Shown: positions 6,546-32,000, counted from the stretch's first letter. The stretch: 32,000 nucleotides of DNA from Pyrodictium delaneyi (GCF_001412615.1 NZ_CP013011.1:660001-692000); one strand, 5' to 3'. Program-made: numbers and translations. The notes: generated from the sequence alone by a model not told the origin.

Positions 6546-6894
6546 TGTTTATCACCATCTACCGTAACTACTTCGAATTAAGAGTCAATTCAACCTAATA
6601 TATGTTTAGTCACGTGGAGTCAAGAGATACAGTGTACTCTCGTGTGATGGGGCCTCGGCTAAAGGAATTAACATCATCGCTATATGGCTCTTGCTGGGGA
6701 GTATTCCTCATTGACCCCCCAAAGGGCGTTGATTAGCTAGAACCCCTAAAACATGCCGCTAAGCACTGAGGCAAAGCAGTATAGAAAATGTATTGTACTA
6801 AAACCAAATACTCTAGATACATCTATGCGTAATACCCATTACACTTATCAAGCGTTAGAAAGCTTAATTAACATAAAGATGTTTTTGGTATTAA

Positions 6895-7761
6895 TTACTT
6901 CTTTAGACCAGCGATGAACTTGAGTACATCAGTTCTCGTTATCATGCCTACTACGTTGTTTGCGGAATCTACAACGACAAGCCTGCCTATATCGTGTTTG
7001 TTCATGAGTTCTATAGCGTGGTTGATGTCATCGGTTTCCCTGATGGTTATCACAGGAGTGGACATGTAGTCTCTGACGGTAGCGTCTACTCTGCCTTCTG
7101 CCAGAGCACGTGTAAGATCTGTCTGAGTTATTATCCCGACAAGACGTCCATCCTCTACAACAGGTACACCGCGAATCCTCTTCTCGGAGAGTAATTTGGC
7201 TAGTTCTGTTATAGGAGTATCAGGTGTGGTTGTTATCGGGTTGCGTGATGCAGCCTCCATCACGGGAGCCTTGGGCACGCTTATCATACGGGTTATCTTG
7301 ATGCTTATCTGGCCACTTGCTGGGTCTATATGTATAACGTCACCCTCTATCCTAACGCCGGCGAATGGTGCAGGCCCAATCTCTATATGGTCGCCAGGCC
7401 GGACATACCTTCTTACATCGCCATGGACTCGAAGGATTGCTCTACCGCCCTCCGGGTTCAGTATATCGAGAACCTCTATGCCGACAACCGTTATGTCTAG
7501 CTCCTCGCCGTCTTTGCGGAGCTTAACAGGCATTTGTGTGACAGCTCCCTTCATGACTTCATACGCCTTGAGTGTTGGCATATAACCTCCGCTAGGCCCG
7601 GTCTTGGACTCTACAAGGCCTAGGCTCTTGAGGCTAAGGATGATGTTACGTACAGTTCCCTCATCACGGTTTATAAGCTCAGCTATCTCCTTGCTCTTTA
7701 TGAGGCGACGCTTCTGTTCGTAAAGCCTGATGAGCGCCTCTAGTACCTCGCGTTGCGACAT
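6895..7761 (-). CDS. Transcriptional regulator with N-terminal wHTH and C-terminal CBS pair
   Basis: N-terminus MSQREVLEALIRLYEQKRRLIKSKEIAELINRDEGTVRNIILSLKSLGLV. Two CBS repeats at the C-terminus (RGVPVVEDGRLVGIITQTDL, IGRLVVVDSANNVVGMITRTDV). The longest ORF extends to 7818. Confidence 0.7.
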   Translation of the reverse strand: MSQREVLEALIRLYEQKRRLIKSKEIAELINRDEGTVRNIILSLKSLGLVESKTGPSGGYMPTLKAYEVMKGAVTQMPVKLRKDGEELDITVVGIEVLDILNPEGGRAILRVHGDVRRYVRPGDHIEIGPAPFAGVRIEGDVIHIDPASGQISIKITRMISVPKAPVMEAASRNPITTTPDTPITELAKLLSEKRIRGVPVVEDGRLVGIITQTDLTRALAEGRVDATVRDYMSTPVITIRETDDINHAIELMNKHDIGRLVVVDSANNVVGMITRTDVLKFIAGLKK

Positions 7762-7948
7762 AGTAAGCCTATACTGGGCCACCCCTAACCCCCTCTCACA
7801 CTGTAGACTTACATGCATCCAGCAATATTAATTGCTTTTTATAGGGTAGAATGTGTCTTAACCTCATTATAGTGTTATTCCGGCAACAGCTATCGCAGAT
7901 ATAAAACTAATATTTCTCTCTCCCGAAATATTACGTGAATAATACCGG

Positions 7949-9334
7949 CTACCTTGTTGTTGTGGATGTAGTGTCAGAAGAGTCCTCGAGAGGTTTGACC
8001 AAGAGAATGGACCCCTCTTTGCCGATAACCAGCACGCTGTCTCCACGACTAAGGGGTTTATCTCCAACATTTCGTGCTCTCCAGTATTCTCCTTCAACCA
8101 TTACAAAGCCATCCTTACCGGGCGGTATATAGTCTAGACTGTGTCCCTTTTTGCCTGTCATTGAAGGTTTGTAGACGGGTTCCCGGTGCCATACTTGTAC
8201 AGCCTTATACACTACAACAGCCATTAGTCCCGCTAGAGGTAGCAATACTGCTAGAAGAATATAGAAGGCGGTTTGTAGGCTCTCGCTGACCAGATATACT
8301 GGCTTGCCTGTAAACATTACGAAAAGACCTATTAGCATCAACGCAATACCTGTAAAGCCTACAACACCGAAGCCCGGTATGGCTGCTAGCTCTATTATCA
8401 ACAATACTAGCCCGGCTACGAACAGTACAACTGACACTAAGCTAGCGCTCAGCCCGAGGCCGAAAAGCCCTAGCAGCATAAGCGCTATACCTACAACGAT
8501 GAGTACGGGATGTCCAGACGCTAAGGCAGCTAAGATGGTTAGCATGGCTATGCTAGATATTATAGAGCTAACCAGTGGATCGGAGAGTATATGTGCCAGC
8601 AAGAGGCCTGGCGGCATATCGTAGTACTCTATCTCCGGGTCTAAAAAGAGGAGACGAACCGGCCCAGCCCCGGTGTTTACGATCGTGCCGTTACTTTCGG
8701 TCAATACTTCCCAAACATTGTGTGCGATGGCTTCTACTACATGCATTTGCTGGGCTTCCTGTGCGTCGAGTACTAGGTTCTGGTAGACGAAGAGCCTGGC
8801 AACCGTAGCGTTGCGGTTATGAAGCTTCATACATGCCTCGATCTTCTTATAGACAGGGTTTAGCACCTTAGACTCATTGATAGGGGTGTATTCGCCGGAA
8901 GGGCCTAGTGCTACAGGCTGTACAGCACCAATAATAGTACCGGGCTCCATTACGGCATAATGGCTGCACATGAGTATCATTGTGCCCGCGCTTACTGCCC
9001 ACTTCCCGGTGACAAAGCCTATGACTGGTATATGCGAGTTCTCTATCATCGTGGCTATGTCTAACGCGGCCTCAAGGCTTCCACCAGGGGTATCCAGCTC
9101 GATTACCAGCGCGTCTGCTCCAACCTTCTCTGCATAGTCTAGGCTACGCTCTACATAGTCGCGGGTTGCTCCATCAATTACGCCCTTAACTTTGATTACT
9201 ATGACTAAGCTCTTCTGCTCGGCAGCGACTGGGCTAGCTACTAGCATCACTAGCAATAATGCTAGTAGAGCTAGAAAAGGGGCATAGGAGGCGAGACGCC
9301 TGGCAACCTTCATGGCTTTTATGCTCCCATCCAC
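7949..9334 (-). CDS. Membrane-bound ClpP-class serine protease, NfeD family (long form)
   Basis: Signal/TM segment, ELDTPGGS protease motif, a block of about 5 TM helices, and a C-terminal OB-like NfeD tail (GEYWRARNVGDKPLSRGDSVLVIG). Confidence 0.75.
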   Translation of the reverse strand: MDGSIKAMKVARRLASYAPFLALLALLLVMLVASPVAAEQKSLVIVIKVKGVIDGATRDYVERSLDYAEKVGADALVIELDTPGGSLEAALDIATMIENSHIPVIGFVTGKWAVSAGTMILMCSHYAVMEPGTIIGAVQPVALGPSGEYTPINESKVLNPVYKKIEACMKLHNRNATVARLFVYQNLVLDAQEAQQMHVVEAIAHNVWEVLTESNGTIVNTGAGPVRLLFLDPEIEYYDMPPGLLLAHILSDPLVSSIISSIAMLTILAALASGHPVLIVVGIALMLLGLFGLGLSASLVSVVLFVAGLVLLIIELAAIPGFGVVGFTGIALMLIGLFVMFTGKPVYLVSESLQTAFYILLAVLLPLAGLMAVVVYKAVQVWHREPVYKPSMTGKKGHSLDYIPPGKDGFVMVEGEYWRARNVGDKPLSRGDSVLVIGKEGSILLVKPLEDSSDTTSTTTR

Positions 9335-9410
9335 TTACGAGATAGCATTGGTATAGAGGTATTAGAGGTCTTATGGTGTTTTGTACTCGTAGAGGGGGGC
9401 TCAATACCTC

Positions 9411-9680
9411 TTACGGTCTTTTTGCTCTGTTATAGCCTTCCCGAACTTCGCGTAGGAACCCCCGGAGAAGTGTATAGAGCAAAGCCAGTATAGCTATGAG
9501 CACTAGGATCTTCATGAGGAACACTATTACGGTTACAGCTAGTTTTGCGACCATATACACTATGGGGAGTATAACGCCGCCAGCGAAAGCGTAAATGACG
9601 GCTTCGCGTAGGCTCTTCTTCTGTGTAAGCGCGTAGATGAAACCTATGACTACACCTGCGGCAGCTACTATCTCTATCAC
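9411..9680 (-). CDS. Small integral membrane protein (hypothetical)
   Basis: 89 aa, three hydrophobic helices, basic C-terminus. No family recognised. Confidence 0.45.
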   Translation of the reverse strand: MIEIVAAAGVVIGFIYALTQKKSLREAVIYAFAGGVILPIVYMVAKLAVTVIVFLMKILVLIAILALLYTLLRGFLREVREGYNRAKRP

Positions 9681-9876
9681 GTCCTCTTTGCCACCCCAGA
9701 ATATGACCAGACTATAGGAAGGGTAAAACTATGGCGCTGGCAATAATGATGGGAGTAGTTCAAGAGGATTTTACGGTAGAATTGGTGAGGAGTAAATTGT
9801 CTCTTCATTAAACTTTCGTGGCTCAAAAAGACTGGGCCATTGGGAGGGGTTATGGATGGCAAGGAGGGCATCTTGC

Positions 9877-10080
9877 CTAGATTGTTACACGGCGTGGCTC
9901 CCTTCTCGGAGTCAGCTCGAAACCAGTAGGATGCTCTGGTATACCCCACAGTTCTCGTTTCAGGAGTTCACGGACAGCTATTCTTATGGCCTCACTACGG
10001 CTGCTATACCTACCCATCTTCACGAGCTCGTCGAGACCCTCAAGGTATGTTTCAGGCATCTTGACTGTTACGAGTCGCAT
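9877..10080 (-). CDS. Ribbon-helix-helix (CopG/Arc-MetJ family) DNA-binding protein
   Basis: MRLVTVKMPETYLEGLDELVKMGRYSSRSEAIRIAVRELL is a canonical beta-strand plus two-helix RHH pattern. Confidence 0.7.
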   Translation of the reverse strand: MRLVTVKMPETYLEGLDELVKMGRYSSRSEAIRIAVRELLKRELWGIPEHPTGFELTPRREPRRVTI

Positions 10081-10228
10081 CTCTGAGGCTCACCGGAGAG
10101 TAGCATTATGGTGTGTAGAGGGTAAGGTTTAAACCCAGGGGAGCTGTGTTACTGCTTCCACTGCTTCCTATGCAGCCTATAGAGACCTTGAAGTGTGGAG
10201 GAAGGGCCTCTGTACAGTTCATCTTGAT

Positions 10229-10621
10229 TTAAACGTTCTCGGGGAAGAATGGCGGTTTTTCTGCCAAGTCTATTATCGGTATTGCTATCCAGCCGGGTCT
10301 GGTACTCCGTGAGACCTCGATGTGTTCGCCTTGATCATCAACCTTTACAAGCAAGTAATTCCCATCACCTAAACTACCATCACCATCGATATAATAGTAG
10401 AGCATTGGCAATCCATAGAGTTTGTAGTAGTCCCGTAGCACAGCTATGATTCCATAAACCTTGCCGCCATTCTTGCCAGGGAATCTCACTAGGTATGCTG
10501 GCTGTCCTAGAGTTACGATGCTAGCAGCTATCCTAGCCAGGTCTCTCAAGGCAGAGACTCTTACCGGTACGAGCCTCTCTCCCTGCCTGTCATCGGGCAA
10601 GGGTTCCGGGCCCCCAGGCAA
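10229..10621 (-). CDS. Hypothetical protein
   Basis: 130-aa ORF with protein-like composition. No motif recognised. Confidence 0.4.
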   Translation of the reverse strand: MPGGPEPLPDDRQGERLVPVRVSALRDLARIAASIVTLGQPAYLVRFPGKNGGKVYGIIAVLRDYYKLYGLPMLYYYIDGDGSLGDGNYLLVKVDDQGEHIEVSRSTRPGWIAIPIIDLAEKPPFFPENV

Positions 10622-20415: not shown

Positions 20416-21621
20416 CTATCTTCTACGTCTACGCGTTTTAATAACAACCTCGGGGTAGACACCAGGGTCTAGATGCTCCTCCTCCACGAAGTTGTCGCCA
20501 AGCCTGACCCAGCCAAGGGTCACACCCCGGACGCTGCCGGGCTCTATGTTGGCGTCCTCCCGTACCCGGACCACGAGCCTCCCACGGGCCAGGTTAAGTT
20601 GCTCGACTAGTGCGGGCTCGTCCAGGCCGTTGGCAAGGTGTAGCCCAGCGAGCAGTCCACGGGCCCAGCCTGGCCGCAACCACACTCCCTCGTCTGGCCT
20701 CCGCTGGGCCTCGACAATGAGTGATGAGTCACAGCTGTAGAGCACGTTGTCGCCGGCCACAGTATATGGGCAGATGTTAGCAGCGAGTGAAGCATCTAGG
20801 ACGAGACTACGGCTCTTCGAGAATAGGGCGGCGTAAAGTCTCTGTCGGAAACTCCTCCGGTCTACGCGGCTCCGCTCCCTCTTAAGCTCCGGGCTGGGCG
20901 CACGGACAACCTCCAGCCTCCGCGCGGCCAGCAATCGGGCGAGTTCGTCGGCCTCCCGGCCGCCGAGCACGACGACTACATTTGCTCCAACGCTCTCCGC
21001 GAGAGCAGCCTTGTAGAGAGCACCCCTGCCCCTCACGTACCCGTCAGTGTCCACGACGAAGCCTCCGCTACATGCGCGAGAGGCGCGCACAGCAGCAGAG
21101 ACTGTGAGGAACCCTGCCTTCTCCGCCGAGACGTGGCCGACGAAGAATCCGCCAGCCGGCTCGACGTCCTGCAGGACTAGGGCTCTCCCTGTCCACGGCG
21201 CGTAGGCCACCATGCCGGGTAATCCTAGCTCGTTCTGCCCCACATCTGCCTCGACTACACAGAGCTCCAGCCCGTTACGCAGCCAGGCTGTGAGCGTAGA
21301 CTTGCCCGACTCAACGGGGCCAACGACCACTATGCGGCGGACACCGCGGCTCCGGAGATCCTCTACTAACCGGCTCCACGCCTCAACGATGCTGAAGCCC
21401 TCGCGTACTACACGGTAGCTGCCCCCAGCGCCAAGATAGACACAGAGCCTAGAAGCCTCCCGGGCATAGAAGGTGAAGCCCCGTGTACCCCGGACAAGCA
21501 CCTCTCCGCCGGCCTCGACGGTATAGCCGCTCGCATAGACGCCTCCCTTCTCCACGGCTACCCGTGCCGGGCCGGAGACCCAGAGGCCCTCGCCGCTCTG
21601 CAGATCCACGCACTCCGGCAT
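20416..21621 (-). CDS. Clp1/Grc3-type polynucleotide 5'-hydroxyl kinase
   Basis: P-loop GPVESGKSTL, EADVGQNELGLPG and VVDTDGYV segments typical of archaeal Clp1. Confidence 0.75.
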   Translation of the reverse strand: MPECVDLQSGEGLWVSGPARVAVEKGGVYASGYTVEAGGEVLVRGTRGFTFYAREASRLCVYLGAGGSYRVVREGFSIVEAWSRLVEDLRSRGVRRIVVVGPVESGKSTLTAWLRNGLELCVVEADVGQNELGLPGMVAYAPWTGRALVLQDVEPAGGFFVGHVSAEKAGFLTVSAAVRASRACSGGFVVDTDGYVRGRGALYKAALAESVGANVVVVLGGREADELARLLAARRLEVVRAPSPELKRERSRVDRRSFRQRLYAALFSKSRSLVLDASLAANICPYTVAGDNVLYSCDSSLIVEAQRRPDEGVWLRPGWARGLLAGLHLANGLDEPALVEQLNLARGRLVVRVREDANIEPGSVRGVTLGWVRLGDNFVEEEHLDPGVYPEVVIKTRRRRR

Positions 21622-23656: not shown

Positions 23657-23734
23657 GGGCCCGTCGTCTAGCCTGGTTAGGACGCCGCCCTCACACGGCG
23701 GAGGTCCGGGGTTCAAATCCCCGCGGGCCCACCA
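23657..23734 (+). tRNA. tRNA-Val (anticodon CAC), with genomically encoded CCA
   Basis: Hand-folded cloverleaf. Acceptor GGGCCCG/CGGGCCC, D-stem GTCT/GGAC, anticodon stem CCGCC/GGCGG with loop CTCACAC, T-arm CGGGG-TTCAAAT-CCCCG, discriminator A at 23731, then CCA. Confidence 0.92.
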
Positions 23735-23777
23735 TTCTCCGCACTCCTTCGCGCTTACAGGAACAGGTTTGGGGAAC

Positions 23778-24236
23778 ATGGCTGCCGAGACTCAAAAAGT
23801 GATACGGCGCCCCACAGAAGCACCGGGGGCGCCGGAAGTGAGCGCCAGCATAGCGAGAGCAGTCGACAGTATCCTGGATATTCTACGCGATATCCCCCCA
23901 GCCTACAGGCTACAAGTACTCCGCATAGCCGAGAGCAAGATACGACCAAGCATTATAGAGAGCGGCGAGCTTGTAAGGAAGGTATCAAAAGGCGGGAGGG
24001 CCAGTTACTTTGTAACACTCCCGAACAACTATACTGAGCTTGTTGGGGAATACGCTATACAAATCAAAGGTAAAAAACTGATCTATATCCCTGTAGAGAA
24101 GGGGGTGGCACGTCTCCGTACATACGGCGGCCGGCTCCGCCTAACCATACCCAAGGGCGCATTTGAGGCTATTGGTTCTCCTAGCTACGTCCGTGTCCGG
24201 GTTGAGGATGGCAGGATCGTGGTGGAGCCCGCCTAA
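23778..24236 (+). CDS. Tandem AbrB/SpoVT-like (swapped-hairpin) DNA-binding protein
   Basis: Two AbrB-like units: KGGRASYFVTLPNNYTELVGEYAIQIKGKKLIYIP and GGRLRLTIPKGAFEAIGSPSYVRVRVEDGRIVVEP. The ATG at 23778 is only 44 nt after the tRNA. Confidence 0.55.
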   Translation: MAAETQKVIRRPTEAPGAPEVSASIARAVDSILDILRDIPPAYRLQVLRIAESKIRPSIIESGELVRKVSKGGRASYFVTLPNNYTELVGEYAIQIKGKKLIYIPVEKGVARLRTYGGRLRLTIPKGAFEAIGSPSYVRVRVEDGRIVVEPA

Positions 24237-24254
24237 AGGGCGGGGTGTGTTTTT
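24228..24254 (+). terminator. Hairpin plus T-run overlapping the stop codon of the AbrB-like gene
   Basis: CCCGCC (24228-24233) / GGCGGG (24239-24244) with loop TAAAG, followed by TTTTT at 24250-24254. Confidence 0.3.
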
Positions 24255-24552
24255 GCAACGTAGGAGCTTGTATGCTATCGTGTTTTCTGTGATGCTTCTC
24301 GGCCTCCTCTCGTTGTCTTATGTTCTTTATGCATGGCTTGGGTTTGACTGGCTCTACCTGCTTGTGTTCGGTATCGTGCTGGCTGGAGTCGTGTTGTTGC
24401 GGCCTTTCCAGCTCCTCTTCATGATGCCCGAGCTGGCCGAGAGACTAGCCCCAAGGAGCCCGAGACGAAAAAGAAGCCCATTGAGTACATGGAGCGTCGC
24501 GTCAAGAAGTTCCCCAAGTGCTTCCACGGGCGAGAGCACGGCTTCAAGGTGA
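24247..24552 (+). CDS. Small two-TM membrane protein; C-terminal part probably read in the wrong frame (see findings)
   Basis: Hydrophobic core LLGLLSLSYVLYAWLGFDWLYLLVFGIVLAGVVLL. The start is ambiguous (GTG 24247 to ATG 24292). The tail is RSP-rich, as expected from out-of-frame reading. Confidence 0.35.
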   Translation: MFLQRRSLYAIVFSVMLLGLLSLSYVLYAWLGFDWLYLLVFGIVLAGVVLLRPFQLLFMMPELAERLAPRSPRRKRSPLSTWSVASRSSPSASTGESTASR

Positions 24553-24559
24553 AGAGGGA

Positions 24560-25417
24560 GTGAACGTCAGCCTGCCCGTTGTTATCGCAGCGTTCTTCGA
24601 GTTTTTCCGCCGGATACCGGCGGAAGACTTCGCAAAGGCTAGGAACGAGATAGAGGAGCTCAGAAAGAGCCACGAGAGGCTGGTCGGCAAGACTGCCATG
24701 CTGCTGGCAGCTGAGAGTCTTCTCGACCACATGCTGAGAGAGACTGAGAGAAACATGGGCACCCTCGGCGAGGCACTAGCCGATGTTCTAGTCCACCTCA
24801 AGACCCGGTTATCGAGGATGCCAGACAGCCAGCTCAGAAGAGAAGTAGTACGAGTCACGAACCAGATACTGGGGAATATGGCTGCCTCGCTCCGGGAAGA
24901 GCTAGGCTACATAAAGGACGACTTAGCGAGCGCGGGTCAGAGTAGTGCTGCCGCACAGCTTGTTGAGGAGGTTCTCGCACAGCCCCATGTGCTTGAGGAG
25001 CTACATAAGAGGCTAGGTAGTCTGGAGCGGTGTAGAAGCAGCCTAGACCTCCTAGAGGCTGCGCTCCTAGAGGCACAGAGAAGGGAGGAAAAACTCTGGG
25101 AAGAATACAAACACAACATGCCCCTGGGGGCTTTTCTGCTGGTGCTCAGCATAGCCGCAGCGGGTATATTGAAGCACGGAGTCCCGCTGGAGCAGCACGC
25201 CCTACTAGCAGCCTATATAGCGTCCCTAGCCCTCTACACGTTCTCAAACTACCTCCTCTACCGTGGTGCCTCTAGGCTCCTAGACTATGCTGTCCTGAGG
25301 CGCTGGTTTAGCGAATTTAGGCAGCTAGTGGCTAGATTCAGAAAACAGGGCCCCGGGGTAGATTGCGACAAGCTATTCGGGGAGGCGGTAGGTTCTTGGA
25401 AGAAGCTGGTGGGCTGA
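24560..25417 (+). CDS. Coiled-coil protein with two C-terminal TM helices (hypothetical)
   Basis: Long heptad-like helical region, then LGAFLLVLSIAAAGIL and LLAAYIASLALYTFSNYLL. The preferred start is GTG 24560, after GAAGAGGGAG and overlapping an upstream TGA. The longest ORF starts at 24518. Confidence 0.5.
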   Translation: MNVSLPVVIAAFFEFFRRIPAEDFAKARNEIEELRKSHERLVGKTAMLLAAESLLDHMLRETERNMGTLGEALADVLVHLKTRLSRMPDSQLRREVVRVTNQILGNMAASLREELGYIKDDLASAGQSSAAAQLVEEVLAQPHVLEELHKRLGSLERCRSSLDLLEAALLEAQRREEKLWEEYKHNMPLGAFLLVLSIAAAGILKHGVPLEQHALLAAYIASLALYTFSNYLLYRGASRLLDYAVLRRWFSEFRQLVARFRKQGPGVDCDKLFGEAVGSWKKLVG

Positions 25418-25425
25418 AGAAGCTT

Positions 25426-25833
25426 ATGGTGCTAGCACTCCTAGGTAACGGCCCTGTGCAGGGCCGGACTCGCATGATGAAGCTATTGTTCCTAGCCCAG
25501 GATAGGGCTAGGAAGCGAGGCATAGAGCTCGACGGGGGCTTTGAGTTCATACCCTACCGCTTTGGGCCGTGGAGCTACGAGGTGCTAATGGTCCTAGAGG
25601 AGCTGCAGCAGGAGGGACTCGTGGTGGAGGAGGTGGAGGAGACCAGCTACGGGCCCCGGTTCAGGTACTTCCTCACCAGGAGGGGACGGGAAGAGGCTGA
25701 GAAGGCCCGCCAGAAGCTACCCCCAGAGATAGTCGAGGAGCTGGACCGCGTCTACCGCGAATGGGCCCAGCGGAGGCTCATCGAGCTGATAGCCTACATC
25801 TACAAGAAGTACCCCGACTATGCCCCCGCATAG
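25426..25833 (+). CDS. Panacea (DUF4065)-like domain protein with wHTH-like middle segment (tentative)
   Basis: MKLLFLAQ...FEFIPYRFGPWSYEVLMVLEEL resembles the DUF4065 core (KLLYxAq ... GPv...vy). The ATG at 25426 is 8 nt after the upstream stop. Confidence 0.4.
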   Translation: MVLALLGNGPVQGRTRMMKLLFLAQDRARKRGIELDGGFEFIPYRFGPWSYEVLMVLEELQQEGLVVEEVEETSYGPRFRYFLTRRGREEAEKARQKLPPEIVEELDRVYREWAQRRLIELIAYIYKKYPDYAPA

Positions 25834-25951
25834 CCTCCTTCCCCCTACAACAATCGAGAAGCCACGTCCTGTACATGCCGATTCTATGCTGGAGTTAGAC
25901 CAAGGCCAGAACCCGCCATGTAGGAGCAGCCCATAGTCTCCCGGGGCAAGC

Positions 25952-25975
25952 TATAAATCGGACAACCGGTTGTCC
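25952..25975 (+). promoter_or_regulatory. TATA box (TATAAAT, 25952-25958) immediately followed by a perfect 16-bp palindromic operator candidate (GGACAACCGGTTGTCC, 25960-25975)
   Basis: Read directly from the sequence. The GTG at 25981 lies about 25 nt downstream of the TATA centre, which fits a leaderless first gene. Confidence 0.5.
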
Positions 25976-25980
25976 AATTT

Positions 25981-26349
25981 GTGGGCCGCCCGGGGGCGCT
26001 TGTGGCCCCGCGGGGGCCCGGAGGCCCGGGTATGACCAGTACGGCGGCTCTTCGGGTTCGGGTAGGTAGGGACACGGTATCTCCAGATATTGTTTTTCCT
26101 GTGGAGCAGCTCGAGGCTCGTATCCGTTTCCTGAAGAACCGTGTCGCGTGGCTTGCCTACCGCAGTCGCGACAGCCGCGTGGTTCGTGCTGCCTCCGATC
26201 TTCTTGTCCGCTTGACGGACTTACTCGAAGACCTCGAGGAGGGTGTCCCTGCTTCTGAGCTCCTCCACAGTCTACGTCTCCTAGAGGAGGATGTTCGCTC
26301 CCTTCTCCGTAGCCCGGAGTCCTATGCTTCTTCCGATGGTTCTCCGTAG
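25981..26349 (+). CDS. Hypothetical acidic helical protein, first gene of the operon
   Basis: ORF in the operon frame pattern. Alternative ATG at 26032. No motif recognised. Confidence 0.45.
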   Translation: MGRPGALVAPRGPGGPGMTSTAALRVRVGRDTVSPDIVFPVEQLEARIRFLKNRVAWLAYRSRDSRVVRAASDLLVRLTDLLEDLEEGVPASELLHSLRLLEEDVRSLLRSPESYASSDGSP

Positions 26350-26355
26350 GGGTGG

Positions 26356-26841
26356 TTGGGTGTGGCTCGGGCCGGTGTTGTGTCTCTGAGTGTGGAGGCT
26401 GGGGTTGCTGCCCGGGTTCTGGCGGAGAATGGTGTGCAGTTCTTCACGGTGAGGCGGCTTGCCCGTATGCTCGGCGTGTCGCCGTGGAAGGCTAGCGCCA
26501 TTGTCCGGGAGATGAGGAGGCTGGGGCTGGCGAGGGAGTGGAACAGTAACAGCTACGTGCTGACAATCCCGGTTCCCCGGCGCAGCAGCGGCCAGGAGCC
26601 CAGCCGGGGCGATGAGCCGGCGGAGCCTCCCAGGCGCGGAGAGGGGCCGCTCACTGGGCTACGGGTGGTCACCTTCAAGCTCGATGCGCGCCTTCTGGCA
26701 GCCCTCGACAACGCCGTGGCCATGCTGGGCTACGACTCCCGCAGCGAGATCATCCGCGAAGCGCTCCGCGAGTTCCTCGAGCGCCGCGGCCTCCTCCCAC
26801 CGCGGGAGGAGTCTAGCGGCGACAGCAGAGCGGAGGCCTAG
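26356..26841 (+). CDS. DNA-binding protein: N-terminal wHTH plus C-terminal ribbon-helix-helix
   Basis: FTVRRLARMLGVSPWKASAIVREMRRLGL (wHTH). VVTFKLDARLLAALDNAVAMLGYDSRSEIIREALREFLER (RHH). Confidence 0.6.
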   Translation: MGVARAGVVSLSVEAGVAARVLAENGVQFFTVRRLARMLGVSPWKASAIVREMRRLGLAREWNSNSYVLTIPVPRRSSGQEPSRGDEPAEPPRRGEGPLTGLRVVTFKLDARLLAALDNAVAMLGYDSRSEIIREALREFLERRGLLPPREESSGDSRAEA

Positions 26842-26845
26842 CGCC

Positions 26846-27109
26846 GTGGCGCTGTTCAGGGTCGGCCCCTGTGTCCTCCAGGTCATACTGACCGACTGCT
26901 ATGGGCACCCAGTACCCGACCTTGAGCAGGTGATGGAGGACTTGGTTCTGCTTGGTGCAGTGCCTCGGGGGCTCCGGGACTGCGACGCCATGGCCATCCT
27001 CACGCGGCGGGCGGTGGAGGAGGCTACGGGCTGCGAGGCCCGCGTCGAGCCCTTCCCGTGGGCTATGGGGCCGGAGATGCACAGGATCATGGCTCTGCGG
27101 CTGGGGTGA
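26846..27109 (+). CDS. Hypothetical protein
   Basis: GTG at 26846 is in frame with the 26612..27109 ORF, 4 nt after the upstream stop and preceded by GGAGG. The longer 26612 start would overlap the RHH gene. Confidence 0.4.
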   Translation: MALFRVGPCVLQVILTDCYGHPVPDLEQVMEDLVLLGAVPRGLRDCDAMAILTRRAVEEATGCEARVEPFPWAMGPEMHRIMALRLG

Positions 27110-27115
27110 CCGGGT

Positions 27116-27313
27116 GTGAGGGTGACGGTTGACCCCAAGAAGATCGCGCAAGTGCTGAGAAGGCTCGGCGTCGTATACGTCAGCCCCCATGACCTAACAG
27201 CAATGCTAGGAATCCCGTCGAGAAGCGCCGGCAGACTGTTGAAGGCCATGGAGAAGCAGGGGCTGGCTATACGCTACTCCAAGAACTTCTACAAGATACT
27301 AGCGAGGGGGTGA
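27116..27313 (+). CDS. Small wHTH protein
   Basis: 65 aa. VSPHDLTAMLGIPSRSAGRLLKAMEKQGLAIRY. GGGGTGA motif upstream. Confidence 0.5.
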   Translation: MRVTVDPKKIAQVLRRLGVVYVSPHDLTAMLGIPSRSAGRLLKAMEKQGLAIRYSKNFYKILARG

Positions 27314-27317
27314 CATA

Positions 27318-27971
27318 GTGGCTACGACCGTGAGGCGCGGCTACAGGTACGTGGTCCGGAAGGAGAACGGGACATGGCCCCCGAGGCATCATAACGGCTT
27401 GGACCCGGGGCTGGTGGGCCCCAGGGCCTTCGAGCACCCGGCTGTAAAGGAGTGGTGGATGTGGCTCCTCCGGGAGTACAGGCCCCGGGCTAGCGTGGCG
27501 CTTGTTACGCCCTGCTCTAGCGTGAAGCCCTACACGAGGAGCCCCACGTCGCGGAAGATACGGGGGCTGCTCCGCCGCCTCGGGCTCTGGAGCGCGGGGG
27601 AGAACCGGCCCAGGGGCATCGAGTGGCTCTACCTCAGCGACCTGCTCCTCCTGGTGCCGTACGAGCGGGCCGAGGAGTACCCAGCCTGCTGCTACGAGCT
27701 CCACCCCGACGAGGTCCTCCAGCGCCCCCTCCTACGCAGCATGGTATCCGGGATGCTAGCAGAGGCCATAGAGAGGCTCATGGACCGGGGCCTCGAGCGC
27801 GCCGTGGTCTTCCTCCCGAGGAAGCACCTAAGGCTCTGGAACGAGGCCAAGAAGCGGGCGGCAAGGTGGCCAAGCGAGACAGTAACCAGGTACACGATAT
27901 TCGGCTTCGACGGGCTCCCCGACGCGCTCAACGCTCTCCGCAGGGTGCCGGAGCTACAGGAGCTCCTGTAG
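27318..27971 (+). CDS. DUF5591 / ArcS C1-domain-like protein (putative 7-deazaguanine-modifying enzyme)
   Basis: VALVTPCSSVKPYTRSPTS fits the ArcS-type PC-x3-KPY-x2-S motif, but the final His of the recalled motif is Ser here. GGGGGTGA lies upstream of the GTG start. Confidence 0.5.
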   Translation: MATTVRRGYRYVVRKENGTWPPRHHNGLDPGLVGPRAFEHPAVKEWWMWLLREYRPRASVALVTPCSSVKPYTRSPTSRKIRGLLRRLGLWSAGENRPRGIEWLYLSDLLLLVPYERAEEYPACCYELHPDEVLQRPLLRSMVSGMLAEAIERLMDRGLERAVVFLPRKHLRLWNEAKKRAARWPSETVTRYTIFGFDGLPDALNALRRVPELQELL

Positions 27972-27985
27972 CGGGGTGATGGAGG

Positions 27986-28261
27986 GTGGCGGGCCACGGG
28001 GCGGTGCTAGCGGAGAAGCTCGTAGCCAGCATGGCTGGGCTGCCGGCGCCCATGGTGCTGGGCAGGCTGGTGCTAGTCCTCAGCGACGCGCTCGACGAGC
28101 TGCCCCCAGGGAAGGCCGTGGAGCTGGTAGCATGGAGCATCTGCGACGTGGAGTGCAGGAGCTGCGACTACTGCGACCCCGAGCACTGCATGGACGAGTG
28201 CACAGCGGCCAGGGCCGAGGAGCTGAGGAAGCTCCTGGAGAGGGCCGGGAGCCATGGCTGA
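27986..28261 (+). CDS. Small Cys-rich protein (6 Cys in 23 residues, includes CX3CX2C)
   Basis: WSICDVECRSCDYCDPEHCMDEC. Its 3' end overlaps the next start by 8 nt (ATGGCTGA). Confidence 0.45.
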   Translation: MAGHGAVLAEKLVASMAGLPAPMVLGRLVLVLSDALDELPPGKAVELVAWSICDVECRSCDYCDPEHCMDECTAARAEELRKLLERAGSHG

Positions 28262-28565
28262 GGCTCTAGAGCGGCTCGCGGAGGCGCTGGACCGGCATAT
28301 GCCTGTACTCCGCCACACCGTGGGCTCCCGCATAGCCGGCGACGGCTGCGAGGCGCGCGCCGTGTACGTGGCAGCGGGGCTGGTGGTGCGCGCCGAGTGC
28401 CGTTTCTTCAAGACGTGGAGGTGCCGGGTAACCGCGAGCGATGGTACACGCTGCGAGGGCGGCGCGTGCCGCGGCGAACACGCCATAGTGCTAGCCAAGG
28501 CGCTCACCGAGGCCGGTGTGCCCAACGCCTTCGGAGAGCCGGAGTGGGAGGCCGAGGAGCCATGA
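28254..28565 (+). CDS. Small Cys-containing protein (hypothetical metal-binding)
   Basis: Five Cys: GCEARAV...ECRFFKTWRCRVTASDGTRCEGGACRGEH. ATGA start/stop overlap with the next gene. Confidence 0.45.
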   Translation: MAEALERLAEALDRHMPVLRHTVGSRIAGDGCEARAVYVAAGLVVRAECRFFKTWRCRVTASDGTRCEGGACRGEHAIVLAKALTEAGVPNAFGEPEWEAEEP

Positions 28566-29503
28566 CCAGCCTTAGAGCCATAGCCGCCAGCCTAGGCGTG
28601 CCCTACGTTACCGCGTACCGTAGCCTCTGGCGCCTACTGGGCATTGGGCCCCGGCACATGAGGCGCATGGATAATCCCGACGTGGGAATTATCCACGGAG
28701 GCGCCGTGGAGACAGTAATCAAGGCAGCGCTGGCCCTGGCAAGGAGGAATCTAGCCTACTACACGCTGTCGCCAGTACCCCTCTGGCCGTGGCTGCTGGT
28801 CCCCGTCAAGTCCGTGGACGCGCTGGAGAAGCTACTGGAGAGCATGAGGAGGCTGGGGGCGAGGCCCAGCAGCGTTATCCTCGACGTGGGCATAATGGAC
28901 TGGTTCAACGGTAGAACCGCGGAGTACAGCGACAAGTTCTGGGACACGCTGTGGGAGGCCGTCGACAGGCTACGGGAGCTGGCCCGGGAGTACGGGTTCG
29001 AGTGGAGGATAGTGCTCCCCGACGTGCCGGCCACTGTGCCGGATAACGTCCCGCTGACCATGAGGCTGCAGGAGCGGCTCCTCAGCGAGCACCCCGAGCT
29101 ACCGTGGATACCGGTCGCGCAGGCTAGCCGGGAGACGCCCCACACAGAGCACCTAGCGTGGCTAGTGGAGACCGGCGTCGTGGAGAAGTATGGCTGCGTG
29201 GCGCTGGGCTCGCTGAAGCTCCTAGCCGGCAGGAAGAAGGCATTGTGGAGGGATGCTGTCTACAGGTCCCGGGGCCTCCTCGAGGAGCACGGGCTAGCCA
29301 ACGTCCGGCTCCACTTGTTCGGCGCGCCGCTCGACATCGTGGCCGCCGAGAAGCTGCCGCCGGGCTCATGGGACAGCAAGACGTGGACCTTCCCCAGGGT
29401 GCCCTACCTCTGGTCGGCCAAGGACGGGTCCATGCGCATAGTCTACTTCACGACGTTCCTCGAGCGCCTCGTAGAGCTGCTCGTGGAGCATGGTGGTGGC
29501 TAG
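28562..29503 (+). CDS. HTH-fused TGT-superfamily transglycosylase, DpdA-like (putative DNA-guanine transglycosylase)
   Basis: N-terminal HTH (LRAIAASLGVPYVTAYRSL). The series ILDVGIMDW, VLPDVP, VALGSLK, RLHLFGAP and SWDSKTW mirrors the ArcTGT/DpdA DSG..., HLFGAG... and ...DS motifs with similar spacing. No CxCxxC Zn site and no PUA or C-terminal tRNA-binding domains. The longest ORF from 28397 is unlikely. Confidence 0.55.
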   Translation: MTSLRAIAASLGVPYVTAYRSLWRLLGIGPRHMRRMDNPDVGIIHGGAVETVIKAALALARRNLAYYTLSPVPLWPWLLVPVKSVDALEKLLESMRRLGARPSSVILDVGIMDWFNGRTAEYSDKFWDTLWEAVDRLRELAREYGFEWRIVLPDVPATVPDNVPLTMRLQERLLSEHPELPWIPVAQASRETPHTEHLAWLVETGVVEKYGCVALGSLKLLAGRKKALWRDAVYRSRGLLEEHGLANVRLHLFGAPLDIVAAEKLPPGSWDSKTWTFPRVPYLWSAKDGSMRIVYFTTFLERLVELLVEHGGG

Positions 29504-29505
29504 CC

Positions 29506-29745
29506 GTGGCCAAGGTGATTCTACGGCCGGGGCTCTACAGGGAGGTGATTGCGGGGATGGTGTGGATGCTGCTCCGGCTGGAGGGCTGTATGGGGCCCAG
29601 GGAGGTTGCTGAGAGGCTCCGCCAGCTCGGCCTCGACGCTAGCCGCGGCAAGATCAACGACGCGCTCGTGGAGTACACGGGGAGGCTCTTCCGTAGGATG
29701 AAGATGGACGGGCACGTCGTATACTGCGCGGAGGAGAGGGTGTGA
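29506..29745 (+). CDS. Small wHTH-like protein (hypothetical)
   Basis: GTG at 29506 is 2 nt after the upstream stop, in frame with the 29158..29745 ORF. PREVAERLRQLGLDASRGKINDALVEY. Confidence 0.4.
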   Translation: MAKVILRPGLYREVIAGMVWMLLRLEGCMGPREVAERLRQLGLDASRGKINDALVEYTGRLFRRMKMDGHVVYCAEERV

Positions 29746-29751
29746 GGGGCC

Positions 29752-30117
29752 GTGGCTGTGAGTGTTGAGCGTGTCGGTGGCGGGCTGCGGGTCTGCGTGG
29801 ACCGGGACATGGAGTGCGAGCGTGTGAGGGCCGAGCTGCGCGCCGTAGTGGAGAGGCTCGCCGGGGAGCTCGGAGCCGAGTACAGCAGGGCCGCGCGGCA
29901 GCGCTTCCGGCGCCTAAGAAACCTCCTGGAGCTCGACCTCTTCCACGCCATGTGCGCCATGGAGGCGTCCGCTGGCTGCCTCACGGTAGACCGGTGGGTG
30001 CGGAGAGCGAGGATGCTCCTCCGGTTCGAGCAGGGCCCCGCATGGGGGTGTACCGGGGTTCTACTGCGAGGAGGGGCATGGAGATGGGATTGCAGAGCAG
30101 TAGAGGCTGATGACTAG
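29752..30117 (+). CDS. Hypothetical protein
   Basis: GTG start 6 nt after the upstream stop. No motif recognised. Confidence 0.4.
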   Translation: MAVSVERVGGGLRVCVDRDMECERVRAELRAVVERLAGELGAEYSRAARQRFRRLRNLLELDLFHAMCAMEASAGCLTVDRWVRRARMLLRFEQGPAWGCTGVLLRGGAWRWDCRAVEADD

Positions 30118-30137
30118 CGGCCGGAGGTGAGCCTCCT

Positions 30138-30752
30138 TTGCCCGGCGAGCGGTGGGCTAGGGAGAGGATGGGGCTAGCACTCAACGCGTATAACGAGTTT
30201 ATGCTGGCCGTGGCCCGTTCCCTGAGGTTTGTGCGTGAGAAGCTGGGGCTGGAGGGGCTGCGCCCCCGCTTCGACGAGGGCAGCAGCGATAGGAGGGTCT
30301 TCCTCATCGAGGTAGAGCTCCCGGCCTCAGCGCCCCTGGTGATAGCGGTCTACTCCACCACGGAGGAGGCTCGGCCGCTCACCTGGAGCAGGGTGGAGGC
30401 GAAGCTCCGCCGGCTACGCCGCTACGCGGCCCAGCGGGCCCCGCCAGCCCGGGACACCTTCGTAGCCGTCGTGACGGCGTCGCCCCGGGCCCGGGCCACA
30501 GGCCCCGCCCAGAAGAGGGCCAGGAGGAGCAAGGTGGCCCTAGGCACGGTAAAGGACGCCCTAAAGGCGCTACGGGGCTACCTGGTCAAGAGGCTCCGGG
30601 GGCTAATCAAGAGCCTCAGGGAGAAGGAGGCCAAGGCCTACGGCGAGCTGGCAGAGCTGCTCCGCGTCCTCTACCTCCTAGCCTCCAGGCTAGGGCCAGT
30701 CGGCATACCCCTCCACGAAGTCGAGGCCATGATTCGCGCCCGCCGCGCCTAG
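30138..30752 (+). CDS. Hypothetical basic protein, last gene of the operon
   Basis: TTG start preceded by GGAGGTGA. Arg/Lys-rich helical C-terminal half. Confidence 0.45.
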   Translation: MPGERWARERMGLALNAYNEFMLAVARSLRFVREKLGLEGLRPRFDEGSSDRRVFLIEVELPASAPLVIAVYSTTEEARPLTWSRVEAKLRRLRRYAAQRAPPARDTFVAVVTASPRARATGPAQKRARRSKVALGTVKDALKALRGYLVKRLRGLIKSLREKEAKAYGELAELLRVLYLLASRLGPVGIPLHEVEAMIRARRA

Positions 30753-30783
30753 CCAGCCAAGGACCCCCTATGCGCATTTGGTT

Positions 30784-30803
30784 AAAAGGTAATACTACCT
30801 TTT
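30784..30803 (+). terminator. Perfect 8-bp hairpin ending in a T-run just after the operon
   Basis: AAAAGGTA (30784-30791), loop ATAC, TACCTTTT (30796-30803). About 30 nt after the stop codon at 30750-30752. Confidence 0.4.
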
Positions 30804-30849
30804 CCCTTAATCGCTAACCTCTCCTAATGGGTAATACGTGTAGAACAAG

Positions 30850-31270
30850 TTACCAGGCCCCAGGCTATAGCCTGTAGCCTGTCCCAGGGCAGACCGGTTC
30901 TCCTCGAGCTATCCCCGGTAAACTGGTCCTAGAACAAAGGCGGCCGGAACTGTCCTGGGGCAAGGCCTGGGCCGGAAGTATTCCATGTTGTCAACGGGTG
31001 TGAGCTCTCCCCGGGATCCCCTATGCCCGGTGGAGTAGCTTCGGCCGGGTGCAGACACCGCCGCTTCTATGGCTGGGGCCTATCGCCTGACAGCCATGAC
31101 ATGGCAAGGCTTATCGCCTAACCACCGGGTAAGCCCACAGAGTAAGATTAGCTGCCAGGCTGACGTATTCTCCTCGAGCTCGCAGCTGTTAGCCCGTCTG
31201 CAGAGGAGAGGCATGTGGAGTTGCACGGGGCCGGGGCCTCTTCGCCTGAGCTCTCCCTAAACACGTGGTG
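30850..31270. other. ORF-free, relatively GC-rich, repeat-containing segment; candidate structured ncRNA or decayed/att-type sequence
   Basis: Only one implausible 63-aa ORF. Duplicated 13-mer TTCTCCTCGAGCT (30898, 31168), 11-mer TGAGCTCTCCC (31001, 31247), palindromes CAGGCTATAGCCTG (30861) and GCCATGACATGGC (31093). Confidence 0.25.
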
Positions 31271-31287
31271 GGAGTCAATCCGGGCCT

Positions 31288-31344
31288 AGAATACTACAAA
31301 GTATTCTTTCCATAGTAGTATACATGTTATTTATACTACTGTGG
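31288..31344. repeat. Two adjacent AT-rich inverted repeats
   Basis: AGAATACT/AGTATTCT (31288-31295 / 31300-31307, loop ACAA). CCATAGTAGTATA / TATACTACTGTGG (31310-31322 / 31332-31344, one T-G mismatch). Confidence 0.6.
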
Positions 31345-31480
31345 TTTGCAGAGGGGGTTCTTTCACCGCTGGGTTCTTTGCCTGGTCTCTCTTTGTCGGT
31401 TGAGTGCTCTCAGTTTAGCATCCTTTGCTCTGTGGTGATTCGTGGCTGTGGCGGTTAGCCTGCTGCGCGAACGCTATTCG

Positions 31481-32000
31481 CTATTCACGGTTCGCCTCCG
31501 GCCATGGACATAGGTCTTTTGAGGGGTAGAGTATCTTTGCGAGGATTGTGGCGGTGTAGACCGGGCCTTGGGGTCTGCATTCTATCTCTGCTAGTCCTAG
31601 GTCTAGGAGTCTCTTCACCTTGTACACGACATGGTCTGAGGGCTCATTAACGGCGTCTGCGAGCTCCCTTAGCGTGCGGGGCTTCTCTATTATGAGCCTG
31701 ACTAGCCGGCTGTCTACTGCTAGTGTATTGAGCGGGTCCAGGAGCCTCGGCGGCGGTAGTATGGTGTAGACTTCCTTCTTCTTCCCCTTGCTCTCTATGT
31801 TGTATACGAGCACCTCTATTGAGGGTGGGTATATGCCTCCTATGTAGTCTATCGCGGCTGCTGTGTAGAAGAGCACTATTGTGAGCCATTCGTGGCTGAG
31901 CGGTAGTATTATCTTCACAGCGTGGATGTGCGTGTTTGGCTCGTCGAGTACGCGTAGATAGCATGCGGTCAGCTTCGCAATGTTGTCCTCTATGGGCTTT
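31481..32000 (-). CDS. wHTH (ArsR-like) protein, probably partial (frame open to the window end)
   Basis: RLVRLIIEKPRTLRELADAVNEPSDHVVYKVKRLLDLGLA. The track starts it at GTG 31918, but my translation of the same frame upstream (KPIEDNIAKLTACYLRVLDEPNTHIHAV) has no stop up to position 32000. Confidence 0.5.
   Translation of the reverse strand, partial: KPIEDNIAKLTACYLRVLDEPNTHIHAVKIILPLSHEWLTIVLFYTAAAIDYIGGIYPPSIEVLVYNIESKGKKKEVYTILPPPRLLDPLNTLAVDSRLVRLIIEKPRTLRELADAVNEPSDHVVYKVKRLLDLGLAEIECRPQGPVYTATILAKILYPSKDLCPWPEANRE

Follow-up and report, generated by a model that had tools for sequence, protein, structure and literature searches.

A putative 7-deazaguanine DNA-modification gene pair in the main operon of an integrated element of Pyrodictium delaneyi

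The DNA analysed here, hereafter the window, is a stretch of 32,000 nucleotides (nt) from Pyrodictium delaneyi (NZ_CP013011.1:660001-692000), and the subject of this report is a block of genes at positions 25981-30752 within it. A mechanical listing of open reading frames (ORFs) confirmed that eleven are present on the plus strand, numbered here ORF1 to ORF11; those at 26846, 28562 and 29506 are internal starts within longer mechanical ORFs. ORF5, ORF8 and ORF11 match Pyrde_0694, Pyrde_0697 and Pyrde_0700 of the P. delaneyi Su06 chromosome (2,023,836 bp) with 100% identity, and the locus-tag numbering fits two genes between each of them, so that the block corresponds to Pyrde_0690-0700. Gene calls with matching lengths are present in related genomes. 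The block had been described, from the sequence alone, as a tightly coupled operon of possibly foreign composition (the original prediction), a description that missed a putative DNA-modification gene pair within it, formed by ORF5 and ORF8. Related loci are referred to by number: L001 is from P. abyssi, L002 from P. delaneyi strain Hulk, and L005 and L007 from a Pyrodictiaceae metagenome-assembled genome. The features of the operon are as follows (aa, amino acids).

25951-25982, plus strand: putative promoter/operator, consisting of a TATA box and a palindrome
25981-26349, plus strand: ORF1 (Pyrde_0690 by numbering), start at GTG 25981 or ATG 26032
26356-26841, plus strand: ORF2, putative regulator with an N-terminal helix-turn-helix (HTH) and a C-terminal ribbon-helix-helix (RHH, CopG-like)
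26846-27109, plus strand: ORF3, 87 aa, variable accessory gene, present in L001 and L002 and absent in L005
27116-27313, plus strand: ORF4, 65 aa, predicted winged-helix (MarR-like) DNA-binding protein
27318-27971, plus strand: ORF5 (Pyrde_0694), 217 aa, single domain, predicted to be an ArcS catalytic core standing alone (DUF5591, 'ArcS2' type)
27986-28261, plus strand: ORF6, 91 aa, Cys-rich (CDVECRSCDYCDPEHCMDEC), present in L001 and L002 and absent in L005, L009 and L010
28254-28565, plus strand: ORF7, 103 aa, Cys-rich, with relatives in L001 only
28562-29503, plus strand: ORF8 (Pyrde_0697), N-terminal HTH and (beta/alpha)8 barrel, divergent member of the TGT/DpdA superfamily and putative DNA guanine transglycosylase
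29506-29745, plus strand: ORF9, 79 aa, conserved partner downstream of the pair, 51-67% identity in L001, L002, L005 and L006
29752-30117, plus strand: ORF10, 121 aa, unique to the Su06 copy, frame supported by a third-codon-position G+C (GC3) of 0.78
30138-30752, plus strand: ORF11 (Pyrde_0700), 204 aa, conserved, 49-81% identity in related loci

Operon layout and base composition

As calculated from the coordinates, consecutive ORFs are separated by gaps of 6, 4, 6, 4 and 14 nt, then by overlaps of 8 and 4 nt, and finally by gaps of 2, 6 and 20 nt, which agrees exactly with the eleven same-strand ORFs and the spacing given in the original prediction. It was also claimed that most internal starts are GTG or TTG preceded by GGTGA/GGAGG-type motifs. 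Eight of the ten internal starts are indeed of these types (six GTG and two TTG, the other two being ATG), and six of the ten are preceded, at -18 to -3, by a Shine-Dalgarno (SD)-like match of at least 5 nt to GGAGGTGATC, compared to a background of 11.7% of positions inside the block (binomial P = 3.6e-4). The anti-SD sequence behind GGAGGTGATC is assumed from general knowledge of archaeal 16S rRNA 3' ends. SD-like sites and start/stop coupling are evident in the sequence for the ten downstream cistrons.

The G+C content of the block is 66.6%, compared to 54.9% for window positions 1-23656, 56.0% for 23735-25900 and 55.2% for 30753-31400, and the genome of strain Hulk has a G+C content of 53.88% (PMC5556600). 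GC3 ranges from 0.74 to 0.89 in ORF2 to ORF11 and from 0.49 to 0.70 in 22 host ORFs, which places these ten ORFs outside the host range, and ATA codons occur at 9.6 per 1000 in the block versus 39.3 per 1000 in the host, bearing out the earlier impression that they are rare here. ORF1 is an exception, as its GC3 of 0.57-0.60 is not elevated, and the compositional step is therefore located at ORF2 and not at 25981; the description of a uniformly GC-rich island holds for ORF2 to ORF11 but not for ORF1. From ORF2 to ORF11 the codon position with the highest G+C follows the third position of the annotated frame, and this frame-specific GC3 supports the small ORFs among them as coding. Elsewhere in the window, the host genes at 5000-10500 (Fur, an HrcA-like/CBS regulator and NfeD) have a G+C content of 45-50%, which is under the genome mean of ~54%; these are ordinary genes and no signs of mobility were seen there.

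The ORF5-ORF8 gene pair

ORF5 scored 25.2 bits against Pfam PF17884 (DUF5591) in hmmscan (cutoff 26, E 1.6e-5), and PF17884 also appears in the annotation precomputed for the identical protein. The NCBIfam ArcS models match ORF5 at 2e-4, over the motif region, and the protein consists of the C1 domain only, with no Nt, C2 or PUA domain. The ArcS2 of viruses likewise consists of the catalytic C1 domain by itself, and its motif is PC-X3-KPY-X2-S-X2-H (Hutinet et al. 2023, PMC10516641). In ORF5 the motif reads PCSSVKPYTRSPTS at residues 65-78, and P65, C66, K70, P71, Y72 and S75 (PC-X3-KPY-X2-S) do not vary when STSV2_16, the ArcS2 protein of the crenarchaeal virus STSV2, is included in the alignment. 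The two proteins are 30% identical (pairwise E 4e-19; tblastn E 2e-5).

The assignment of ORF8 was made through its relatives. A profile of 13 close homologues retrieved 51 proteins at E <= 1e-3 in an exhaustive search, and among 39 aligned members of the family the Pfam model for DpdA (PF23859) matched 15 and that for TGT matched four, with three relatives scoring 52.9, 45.1 and 40.0 bits on the DpdA model (cutoff 27). With NCBIfam, six family members matched DpdA (best 7.8e-13), one matched tgt_general and none matched ArcS. The alignment of the close ORF8 family to seven of the Pfam-positive relatives using hhalign had a probability of 99.2% (E 1.1e-19, 230 columns). Furthermore, two of the relatives match several hundred mycobacteriophage genes annotated 'queuine tRNA-ribosyltransferase / DpdA-like' in addition to a gene of Methanobacterium virus PhiF1. 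Searches starting from ORF8 itself were not informative: tblastn against phages gave non-significant matches only, and sequence searches of the PDB using the single sequence and the 13-sequence profile gave nothing relevant.

An AlphaFold2 model of ORF8 built with the 39-sequence alignment had a predicted local distance difference test (pLDDT) score of 91.2 and a predicted template modelling (pTM) score of 0.90, and comprises a three-helix N-terminal HTH-like unit followed by eight beta strands alternating with helices. A first model, made with the 13 close homologues (pLDDT 73.8), was discarded as it gave generic TIM-barrel matches only. When the model was compared using Foldseek with viral models (BFVD), 16 matches were obtained at E <= 1e-3, and all of the named ones are phage queuine tRNA-ribosyltransferase/DpdA proteins; an unnamed match is a protein of Cellulophaga phage phiST. 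The best PDB match was Cap10 (9ntn; E 9e-5), which we take to be TGT-like. Seven residues, D108, D154, Q187, H251, F253, G254 and D271, are invariant over the 39 sequences (17-63% identity), and G216 is invariant solely in the 13-member close family. In the model the invariant residues are located at, or just after, the C-terminal ends of strands 3-8, and the active sites of TIM barrels lie at the C-terminal ends of the strands. The order of active-site residues in the DpdA of S. Montevideo is Asp95/Asp130/His181/Gly-loop/Asp256 (PMC10164549), and D108/D154/D271 of ORF8 appear to match Asp95/Asp130/Asp256, by motif order rather than by direct alignment.

From the sequence family and the model, ORF8 looks like a very divergent, Zn-less and HTH-fused member of the TGT/DpdA superfamily. 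It shares with phage DpdA1-4 and bacterial DpdA (Salmonella Montevideo; PF23859, NF041059) the (beta/alpha)8 barrel and, in conserved order, the three invariant Asp residues together with Gln/His and a Gly-containing strand end; its relatives pass the DpdA models and match mycobacteriophage DpdA genes, and its structural matches include phiST. It differs from them in falling below detection on both curated models, in having no CXCX2C...H and in its extra N-terminal HTH, and the bacterial systems differ further as no DpdB or DpdC partner is present in the block. The alternative that ORF8 belongs to a split ArcS, as its non-catalytic N-terminal domain, was rejected, since the relatives match DpdA and never ArcS and since the positions of the catalytic Asp residues do not vary.

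In all eight loci examined, down to 53% identity, an ORF5-like gene is found adjacent or nearly adjacent to an ORF8-like gene, and we propose that the two form the conserved functional core of the element operon. The closest known analogue of the pair is found in STSV2, which encodes DpdA (STSV2_15) and ArcS2 (STSV2_16); STSV2_16 directly follows STSV2_15, annotated queuine tRNA-ribosyltransferase. Both cases involve a crenarchaeal mobile element with a TGT/DpdA-like gene next to a DUF5591 gene and without genes for the synthesis of 7-cyano-7-deazaguanine (preQ0), and the identity between ORF5 and STSV2_16 includes the shared PC-X3-KPY-X2-S. The differences are that the gene order is reversed here, with the ArcS2-like gene first, that ORF8 is only marginally alignable to STSV2_15 (see below) and carries the N-terminal HTH, that the ArcS motif closes with Ser instead of His in ORF5, and that STSV2 is a bicaudavirus whereas the pair described here lies on an integrated plasmid-like element of a Pyrodictium growing at ~90 C or above. 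STSV2 encodes only DpdA and ArcS2, and dCDG (2'-deoxy-7-carboxy-7-deazaguanine) has been measured in its DNA (PMC10516641). In Vibrio phage nt-1, DpdA2 alone produced 2'-deoxy-7-cyano-7-deazaguanine (dPreQ0), and DpdA2 with ArcS2 produced 2'-deoxyarchaeosine (dG+), in E. coli plasmid DNA (PMC10516641). The two-enzyme logic is the same as that suggested here, but nt-1 is a bacterial myovirus which also encodes the preQ0 pathway, and its proteins show no tblastn similarity to ORF5 or ORF8.

The integrated element, its predicted promoter region and its other genes

The block is the main operon of a larger integrated element that runs from a tRNA-Val gene to past position 32000, an extent that was missed when the block was described as an island on its own. 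The following features flank the operon.

23657-23734, plus strand: tRNA-Val(CAC), left junction of the integrated element (ARAGORN, Rfam)
23769-25833, plus strand: three element genes before the operon, encoding proteins of 155 aa and 299 aa and a PadR-like winged helix-turn-helix (wHTH) protein of 156 aa
30753-31400, no strand assigned: gene-free conserved region after the operon, G+C 55%, with direct and inverted repeats

The operon sits 2.2 kb downstream of tRNA-Val. The window upstream of this tRNA contains housekeeping genes, encoding a pyridoxal phosphate-dependent enzyme, CTP synthase, Lrp/AsnC, Fur, NfeD and a GPN-type ATPase, in addition to ThiN, an M20 peptidase, MoeA, Clp1, a DHH protein and ThiS. 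The three genes between the tRNA and the operon have normal G+C (GC3 0.56-0.75) and are 99-100% identical to those of the strain Hulk element; the PadR match of the 156-aa protein is weak, and the 155-aa gene is likewise found after tRNA-Thr in P. abyssi and after tRNA-Asn in the metagenome-assembled genome. Homologous blocks are located a few kb downstream of tRNA-Thr(GGT) in L001 and of tRNA-Asn(GTT) in L005/L007, and next to tRNA-Val in Hulk; homologues of the segment adjoin three different tRNA genes in four genomes. The nucleotide homology between the window and strain Hulk sets in at base 1 of the tRNA (23657, equivalent to L002 5271), with none upstream, and the products of the two strains are 98-100% identical from the tRNA through ORF4 (27313) and then 49-80% identical at the amino acid level from ORF5. 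On the grounds of the three tRNA sites, the foreign composition and this mosaicism between near-identical strains, the horizontal acquisition that the original prediction had raised as a possibility is strongly supported, and it is very likely that this is the operon of an integrated mobile element.

The recombination junction between Su06 and Hulk falls at the ORF4/ORF5 boundary, although the strains are said to share 99.77% similarity. Ahead of tRNA-Val in Hulk, L002 1-5270 has no homology to the ThiS/DHH region of Su06 and encodes unknown proteins, including one of 634 aa and a STAND-like NTPase, and there may have been a second insertion at the same tRNA in that strain.

In L001, L002 and L005 the high-GC segment extends beyond the block, through a gene for a DUF87/TraG/VirD4-like ATPase of 1135-1168 aa which lies ~2-3 kb downstream of the block. 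This ATPase is 34-40% identical (E 1e-107 to 2e-153) to proteins of pNOB8, of other Sulfolobus/Acidianus conjugative plasmids and of a Thermococcus nautili plasmid, and matches phage proteins weakly. The related Pyrodictiaceae elements thus resemble the pNOB8-family plasmids in the ATPase (with matches in pNOB8, pKEF9-type plasmids, pAH1 and pTC) and resemble these plasmids and their integrated copies in lying beside a tRNA gene. They differ in that no integrase or VirB4-like gene was seen here, the TraG gene is outside the window, and no plasmid in PLSDB has a homologue of ORF5, ORF8 or ORF11. The ORF8 family is also very small: a search of 5.8 billion proteins yielded just 15 homologues, and a profile search with the close ORF8 alignment found two loci only, both in metagenome-assembled genomes, in 185,579 species genomes.

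The gene-free region at 30753-31400 has 71-80% nucleotide identity to L001, L002 and L005, and is partly shared with L008; no Rfam family was found for it. Its repeats include TATCGCCTGAC / TATCGCCTAAC at 31080-31122, two copies each of GGTAATAC and TTCTCCTCGAGCT, and a 16-nt inverted repeat at 31310-31344, and judging from its sequence it is a candidate origin, oriT, attP or non-coding RNA. The 3' 50 nt of tRNA-Val (23685-23734) are 98% identical to a stretch of the integrase gene of Aeropyrum pernix spindle-shaped virus 1 (APSV1; 36556-36605). By sequence, the APSV1 stretch is of attP type and this half of tRNA-Val appears to be an attachment target common to crenarchaeal elements. In P. abyssi, the right edge of the element has low G+C, and L001 18935-20771 encodes there a 329-aa protein without matches and a DUF5131 protein; the 329-aa gene was considered as an integrase and rejected, as neither Pfam nor the PDB supported it. 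Both L002 and L005 terminate in transposase genes of the IS605/IS607 type (TnpB, Y1 transposase and resolvase).

A TATA-like element, CTATAAAT, is present at 25951-25958 and is the sole one between 25700 and 30780. On the plus strand there is no run of four or more T residues from 26098 to 30799, and the first after the block is at 30800, which fits one transcript from ~25981 to ~30800. The single TATA-like element, the lack of such T runs, the tight spacing of the genes and the SD-like enrichment are consistent with the single transcription unit originally put forward, but do not prove it. Archaeal RNA polymerase can terminate at oligo-T, and the sole T5 run on the plus strand within 25900-31500 is at 26093-26097, inside ORF1 and ~110 nt past the predicted start; this could act as an attenuator.

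A perfect 16-bp palindrome, GGACAACCGGTTGTCC, occupies 25960-25975 and forms the core of an imperfect palindrome of ~30 bp (25953-25982), whose left arm is formed by the TATA box. Four elements have identical flanks (ATAAAT ... ATTTGTGGGCC), whereas the core varies yet stays palindromic, being GGTAACAGCTGTTACC in L005 (8494-8525) and GGTAG-N5-CTACC in L001 (about 7120-7150). As the flanks are invariant while the core changes and keeps its palindromy, the palindrome is probably an operator with element-specific recognition, bound most probably by ORF2 (RHH) or ORF4 (wHTH). This pattern suggests that the specificities of repressor and operator co-evolve, possibly as a determinant of immunity or incompatibility. 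The sequence at 25981-26031 is conserved at the nucleotide level but is out of frame in the metagenome-assembled copy L005; because 25983-26025 is out of frame there, and the strain Hulk call is 105 aa, ORF1 may start at ATG 26032 rather than at GTG 25981. RNA structure in the GC-rich leader at 25983-26025 was considered and rejected, as the predicted hairpin does not stand out from those of shuffled sequence (z = -0.75).

Four of the eleven products could be assigned, ORF2, ORF4, ORF5 and ORF8, which falls within the 3 to 5 recognisable products originally estimated. ORF2 has an RHH_1 match in Pfam (4.9e-11, residues 105-143) and matches a PHROG CopG-like repressor; its N-terminal HTH is weak, and its match to the NCBIfam aCcr1 family (6.8e-9) is under the cutoff of that model. 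The Pfam MarR_2 match of ORF4 (1.1e-4) is also under its cutoff, and a MarR-like gene precedes the pair in L009 too. Searches of Pfam, PHROGs, NCBIfam, PADLOC and PDB sequences gave nothing significant for ORF1, 3, 6, 7, 9, 10 and 11. ORF1 is 66%, 99% and 47% identical to its counterparts in L001, L002 and L005, respectively, and no related locus has a homologue of ORF10. ORF11 has nine homologues, all in Pyrodictium or metagenomes; its profile found nothing in the PDB and the protein found nothing in plasmids. Across the related loci ORF1, the RHH domain, ORF5, ORF8, ORF9 and ORF11 are conserved, and ORF3, 4, 6 and 7 are variable. Since the ORF5-like and ORF8-like genes abut in L005, L009 and L010, ORF6 and ORF7 are insertions and not obligatory partners of the pair; that they might supply a metal-binding module in trans to the Zn-less ORF8 is pure speculation.

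Proposed function, alternatives and implications

The reading that we favour, and consider reasonably probable, is that this is the main operon, probably under one promoter, of a plasmid-like (pNOB8-type) element whose functions include a post-replicative 7-deazaguanine DNA modification drawing on host preQ0. In this scheme transcription would begin ~25 nt downstream of the TATA box at 25951-25958 and would be gated by a dimeric element-encoded repressor (ORF2 RHH or ORF4 wHTH) bound to the palindrome between the TATA box and the start. The ten downstream cistrons would be translated through their SD-like sites and start/stop coupling. ORF8 would exchange guanine in double-stranded DNA for preQ0 from the archaeosine pathway of the host, and ORF5, as an ArcS C1 domain, would then convert the nitrile of the DNA-bound preQ0 to an amidine-type product. 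In Thermococcus kodakarensis, ArcS is a lysine transferase with the preQ0 nucleoside as its minimal substrate, and RaSEA is needed to finish archaeosine (G+) (PMC11298593); because of this, the product could be dG+, a lysine adduct or another derivative. Phage 7-deazaguanines protect DNA against restriction (PMC6884629), and the modified DNA would similarly be expected to resist restriction when the element enters a new host. The sequence comparisons establish the anatomy of the operon, its foreign composition, its mobility between tRNA sites, the homology of ORF5 to ArcS2 and of ORF8 to DpdA-type enzymes, and the adjacency of the pair; the DNA substrate, the chemical product, the anti-restriction role and the regulation are the parts of this scheme that we infer.

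Several observations weigh against this reading. ORF8 itself matches no curated DpdA or TGT model (Pfam PF23859 and PF01702; NCBIfam NF041059), making its link to them transitive, and the hhalign comparison of its family with STSV2_15 had a probability of 55% (E 1.2e-4). Foldseek returned modest TM-scores (0.41-0.51), and the best 50 PDB matches include none of the solved structures of DpdA and TGT. A structural Zn site is conserved in DpdA and TGT enzymes (PMC10164549), and this site, CXCX2CX22H, is absent from ORF8 and from the family consensus, ORF8 having no Cys after D271 and one Cys overall. The final His of the ArcS motif is Ser in ORF5 and in every Pyrodictiaceae copy, whether host or element, while STSV2_16 retains the His, and the nearest non-element relatives of ORF5 are host-core genes of the Pyrodictiaceae (below). 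No preQ0 biosynthesis gene is visible in the element. With respect to the plasmid-like nature of the element, the TraG-like gene is known from the related loci only, the corresponding Su06 position lying past the end of the window. The scanned products of the window and the related loci include no integrase domain, and att repeats derived from the tRNA were sought in the window, L001 and L002 without success, the Su06 element having its right end beyond 32000. As neither an integrase nor attR nor an excised form was observed, the element may be a remnant that has become fixed.

ORF5 and ORF8 may alternatively act on RNA, as a mobile-element copy of an archaeosine-type tRNA modification system. 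ArcS and arcTGT are tRNA enzymes, ORF8 has no direct match to a curated DpdA model, and ORF5 is 58-62% identical to stand-alone DUF5591 genes located in ordinary neighbourhoods of the host chromosomes of P. delaneyi, P. abyssi, Hyperthermus and Pyrolobus. As these chromosomal genes are its closest non-element relatives, ORF5 looks to have been recruited from the host DUF5591 lineage. One such host gene (L004 6001-6690, P0039) has CrcB, a 2-hydroxyacid dehydrogenase and an aminotransferase as neighbours, with a weak radical-SAM gene 3 kb away. However, neither ORF5 nor ORF8 has a PUA or other RNA-binding domain and ORF8 has the N-terminal HTH; the ORF8 relatives favour DpdA over TGT models (15 versus four with Pfam, six versus one with NCBIfam) with none for ArcS, the named Foldseek matches are phage DpdAs, and the known mobile-element pairs (STSV2 and phage nt-1) are linked to modified DNA. 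An RNA target is therefore considered unlikely. The preference for DNA as the target comes from three things and from nothing else, namely the presence of an HTH without a PUA domain, the affinity of the relatives to DpdA-type enzymes and the location on a mobile element.

The element could also be a provirus or what is left of one, and not a plasmid or an integrative and conjugative element, and the block a viral early operon with an anti-restriction DNA modification. The nearest annotated DpdA and ArcS2 pair is that of a crenarchaeal virus, STSV2; ORF5 matches a PHROG family (8.8e-12), the RHH of ORF2 resembles the aCcr1 family, and the 3' half of tRNA-Val is the attachment sequence of virus APSV1. 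Nevertheless, three related loci were recognised to have neither a capsid gene nor a packaging gene over ~15 kb, the similarity of the large ATPase is strong to conjugative-plasmid TraG/VirD4 proteins and weak to phage proteins, and the block DNA has no match in the phage collection except at the tRNA. A viral origin thus also has a low probability.

As bacterial dpdA belongs to a restriction-modification system (PMC10164549), and seven of the ORFs have no assigned function, the block might be a Dpd-like defence island in which the mark labels self DNA and some of these ORFs restrict unmodified DNA. This is very unlikely, as PADLOC found nothing for ten of the products, no domain of DpdB (ParB-like ATPase), DpdC, a helicase or a nuclease was found in the block with Pfam or NCBIfam, and the ORFs without a function are small (79-204 aa) and mostly variable among the copies. 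An ordinary, vertically inherited host operon with a high G+C due to local selection is scarcely credible even though some host genes of the window reach 64% G+C (20416-21621), since it is already contradicted by homologues at three different tRNA loci, and since ORF8 homologues are so sparsely distributed (15 proteins and two loci in the searches above), the block is a mosaic between near-identical strains and its GC3 is far beyond the host range.

Returning to the modification of DNA by a plasmid-like element, the locus would be a variation on the known 7-deazaguanine DNA-modification systems in which, on sequence comparison, the carrier, the host lineage and the DpdA lineage are new. A more specific version, which is doubtful but conceivable, is that an unrecognised subfamily of Zn-less, HTH-fused DpdA and an ArcS-core enzyme install a 7-deazaguanine derivative in the DNA of a conjugative-plasmid-like element in an archaeon living at ~90-100 C. 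As ArcS is a lysine transferase and the element is without RaSEA, the product is perhaps new to DNA, for example a preQ0-lysine adduct. In this version, the pair would be the first such case on a non-viral archaeal element. The element, being integrated, might mark the whole chromosome of its host, and as 7-deazapurines lack N7, the mark might slow thermal depurination besides blocking restriction.

The 7-deazaguanine modification of DNA has so far been documented in phages, a few archaeal viruses and bacterial dpd islands. If the proposed reading is correct, the pair would widen this range to archaeal elements of the conjugative type and to the highest temperatures at which life occurs. It would also add a DpdA lineage that is missed by the current curated models. 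With respect to annotation, eleven hypothetical proteins become part of an integrated element with a putative promoter-operator and DNA-modification module. Furthermore, the pair would offer a second natural crenarchaeal system for the puzzle posed by STSV2, namely what ArcS2 produces on DNA and where the deazaguanine comes from, and as P. delaneyi Su06 and Hulk are cultured strains, it would be directly testable.

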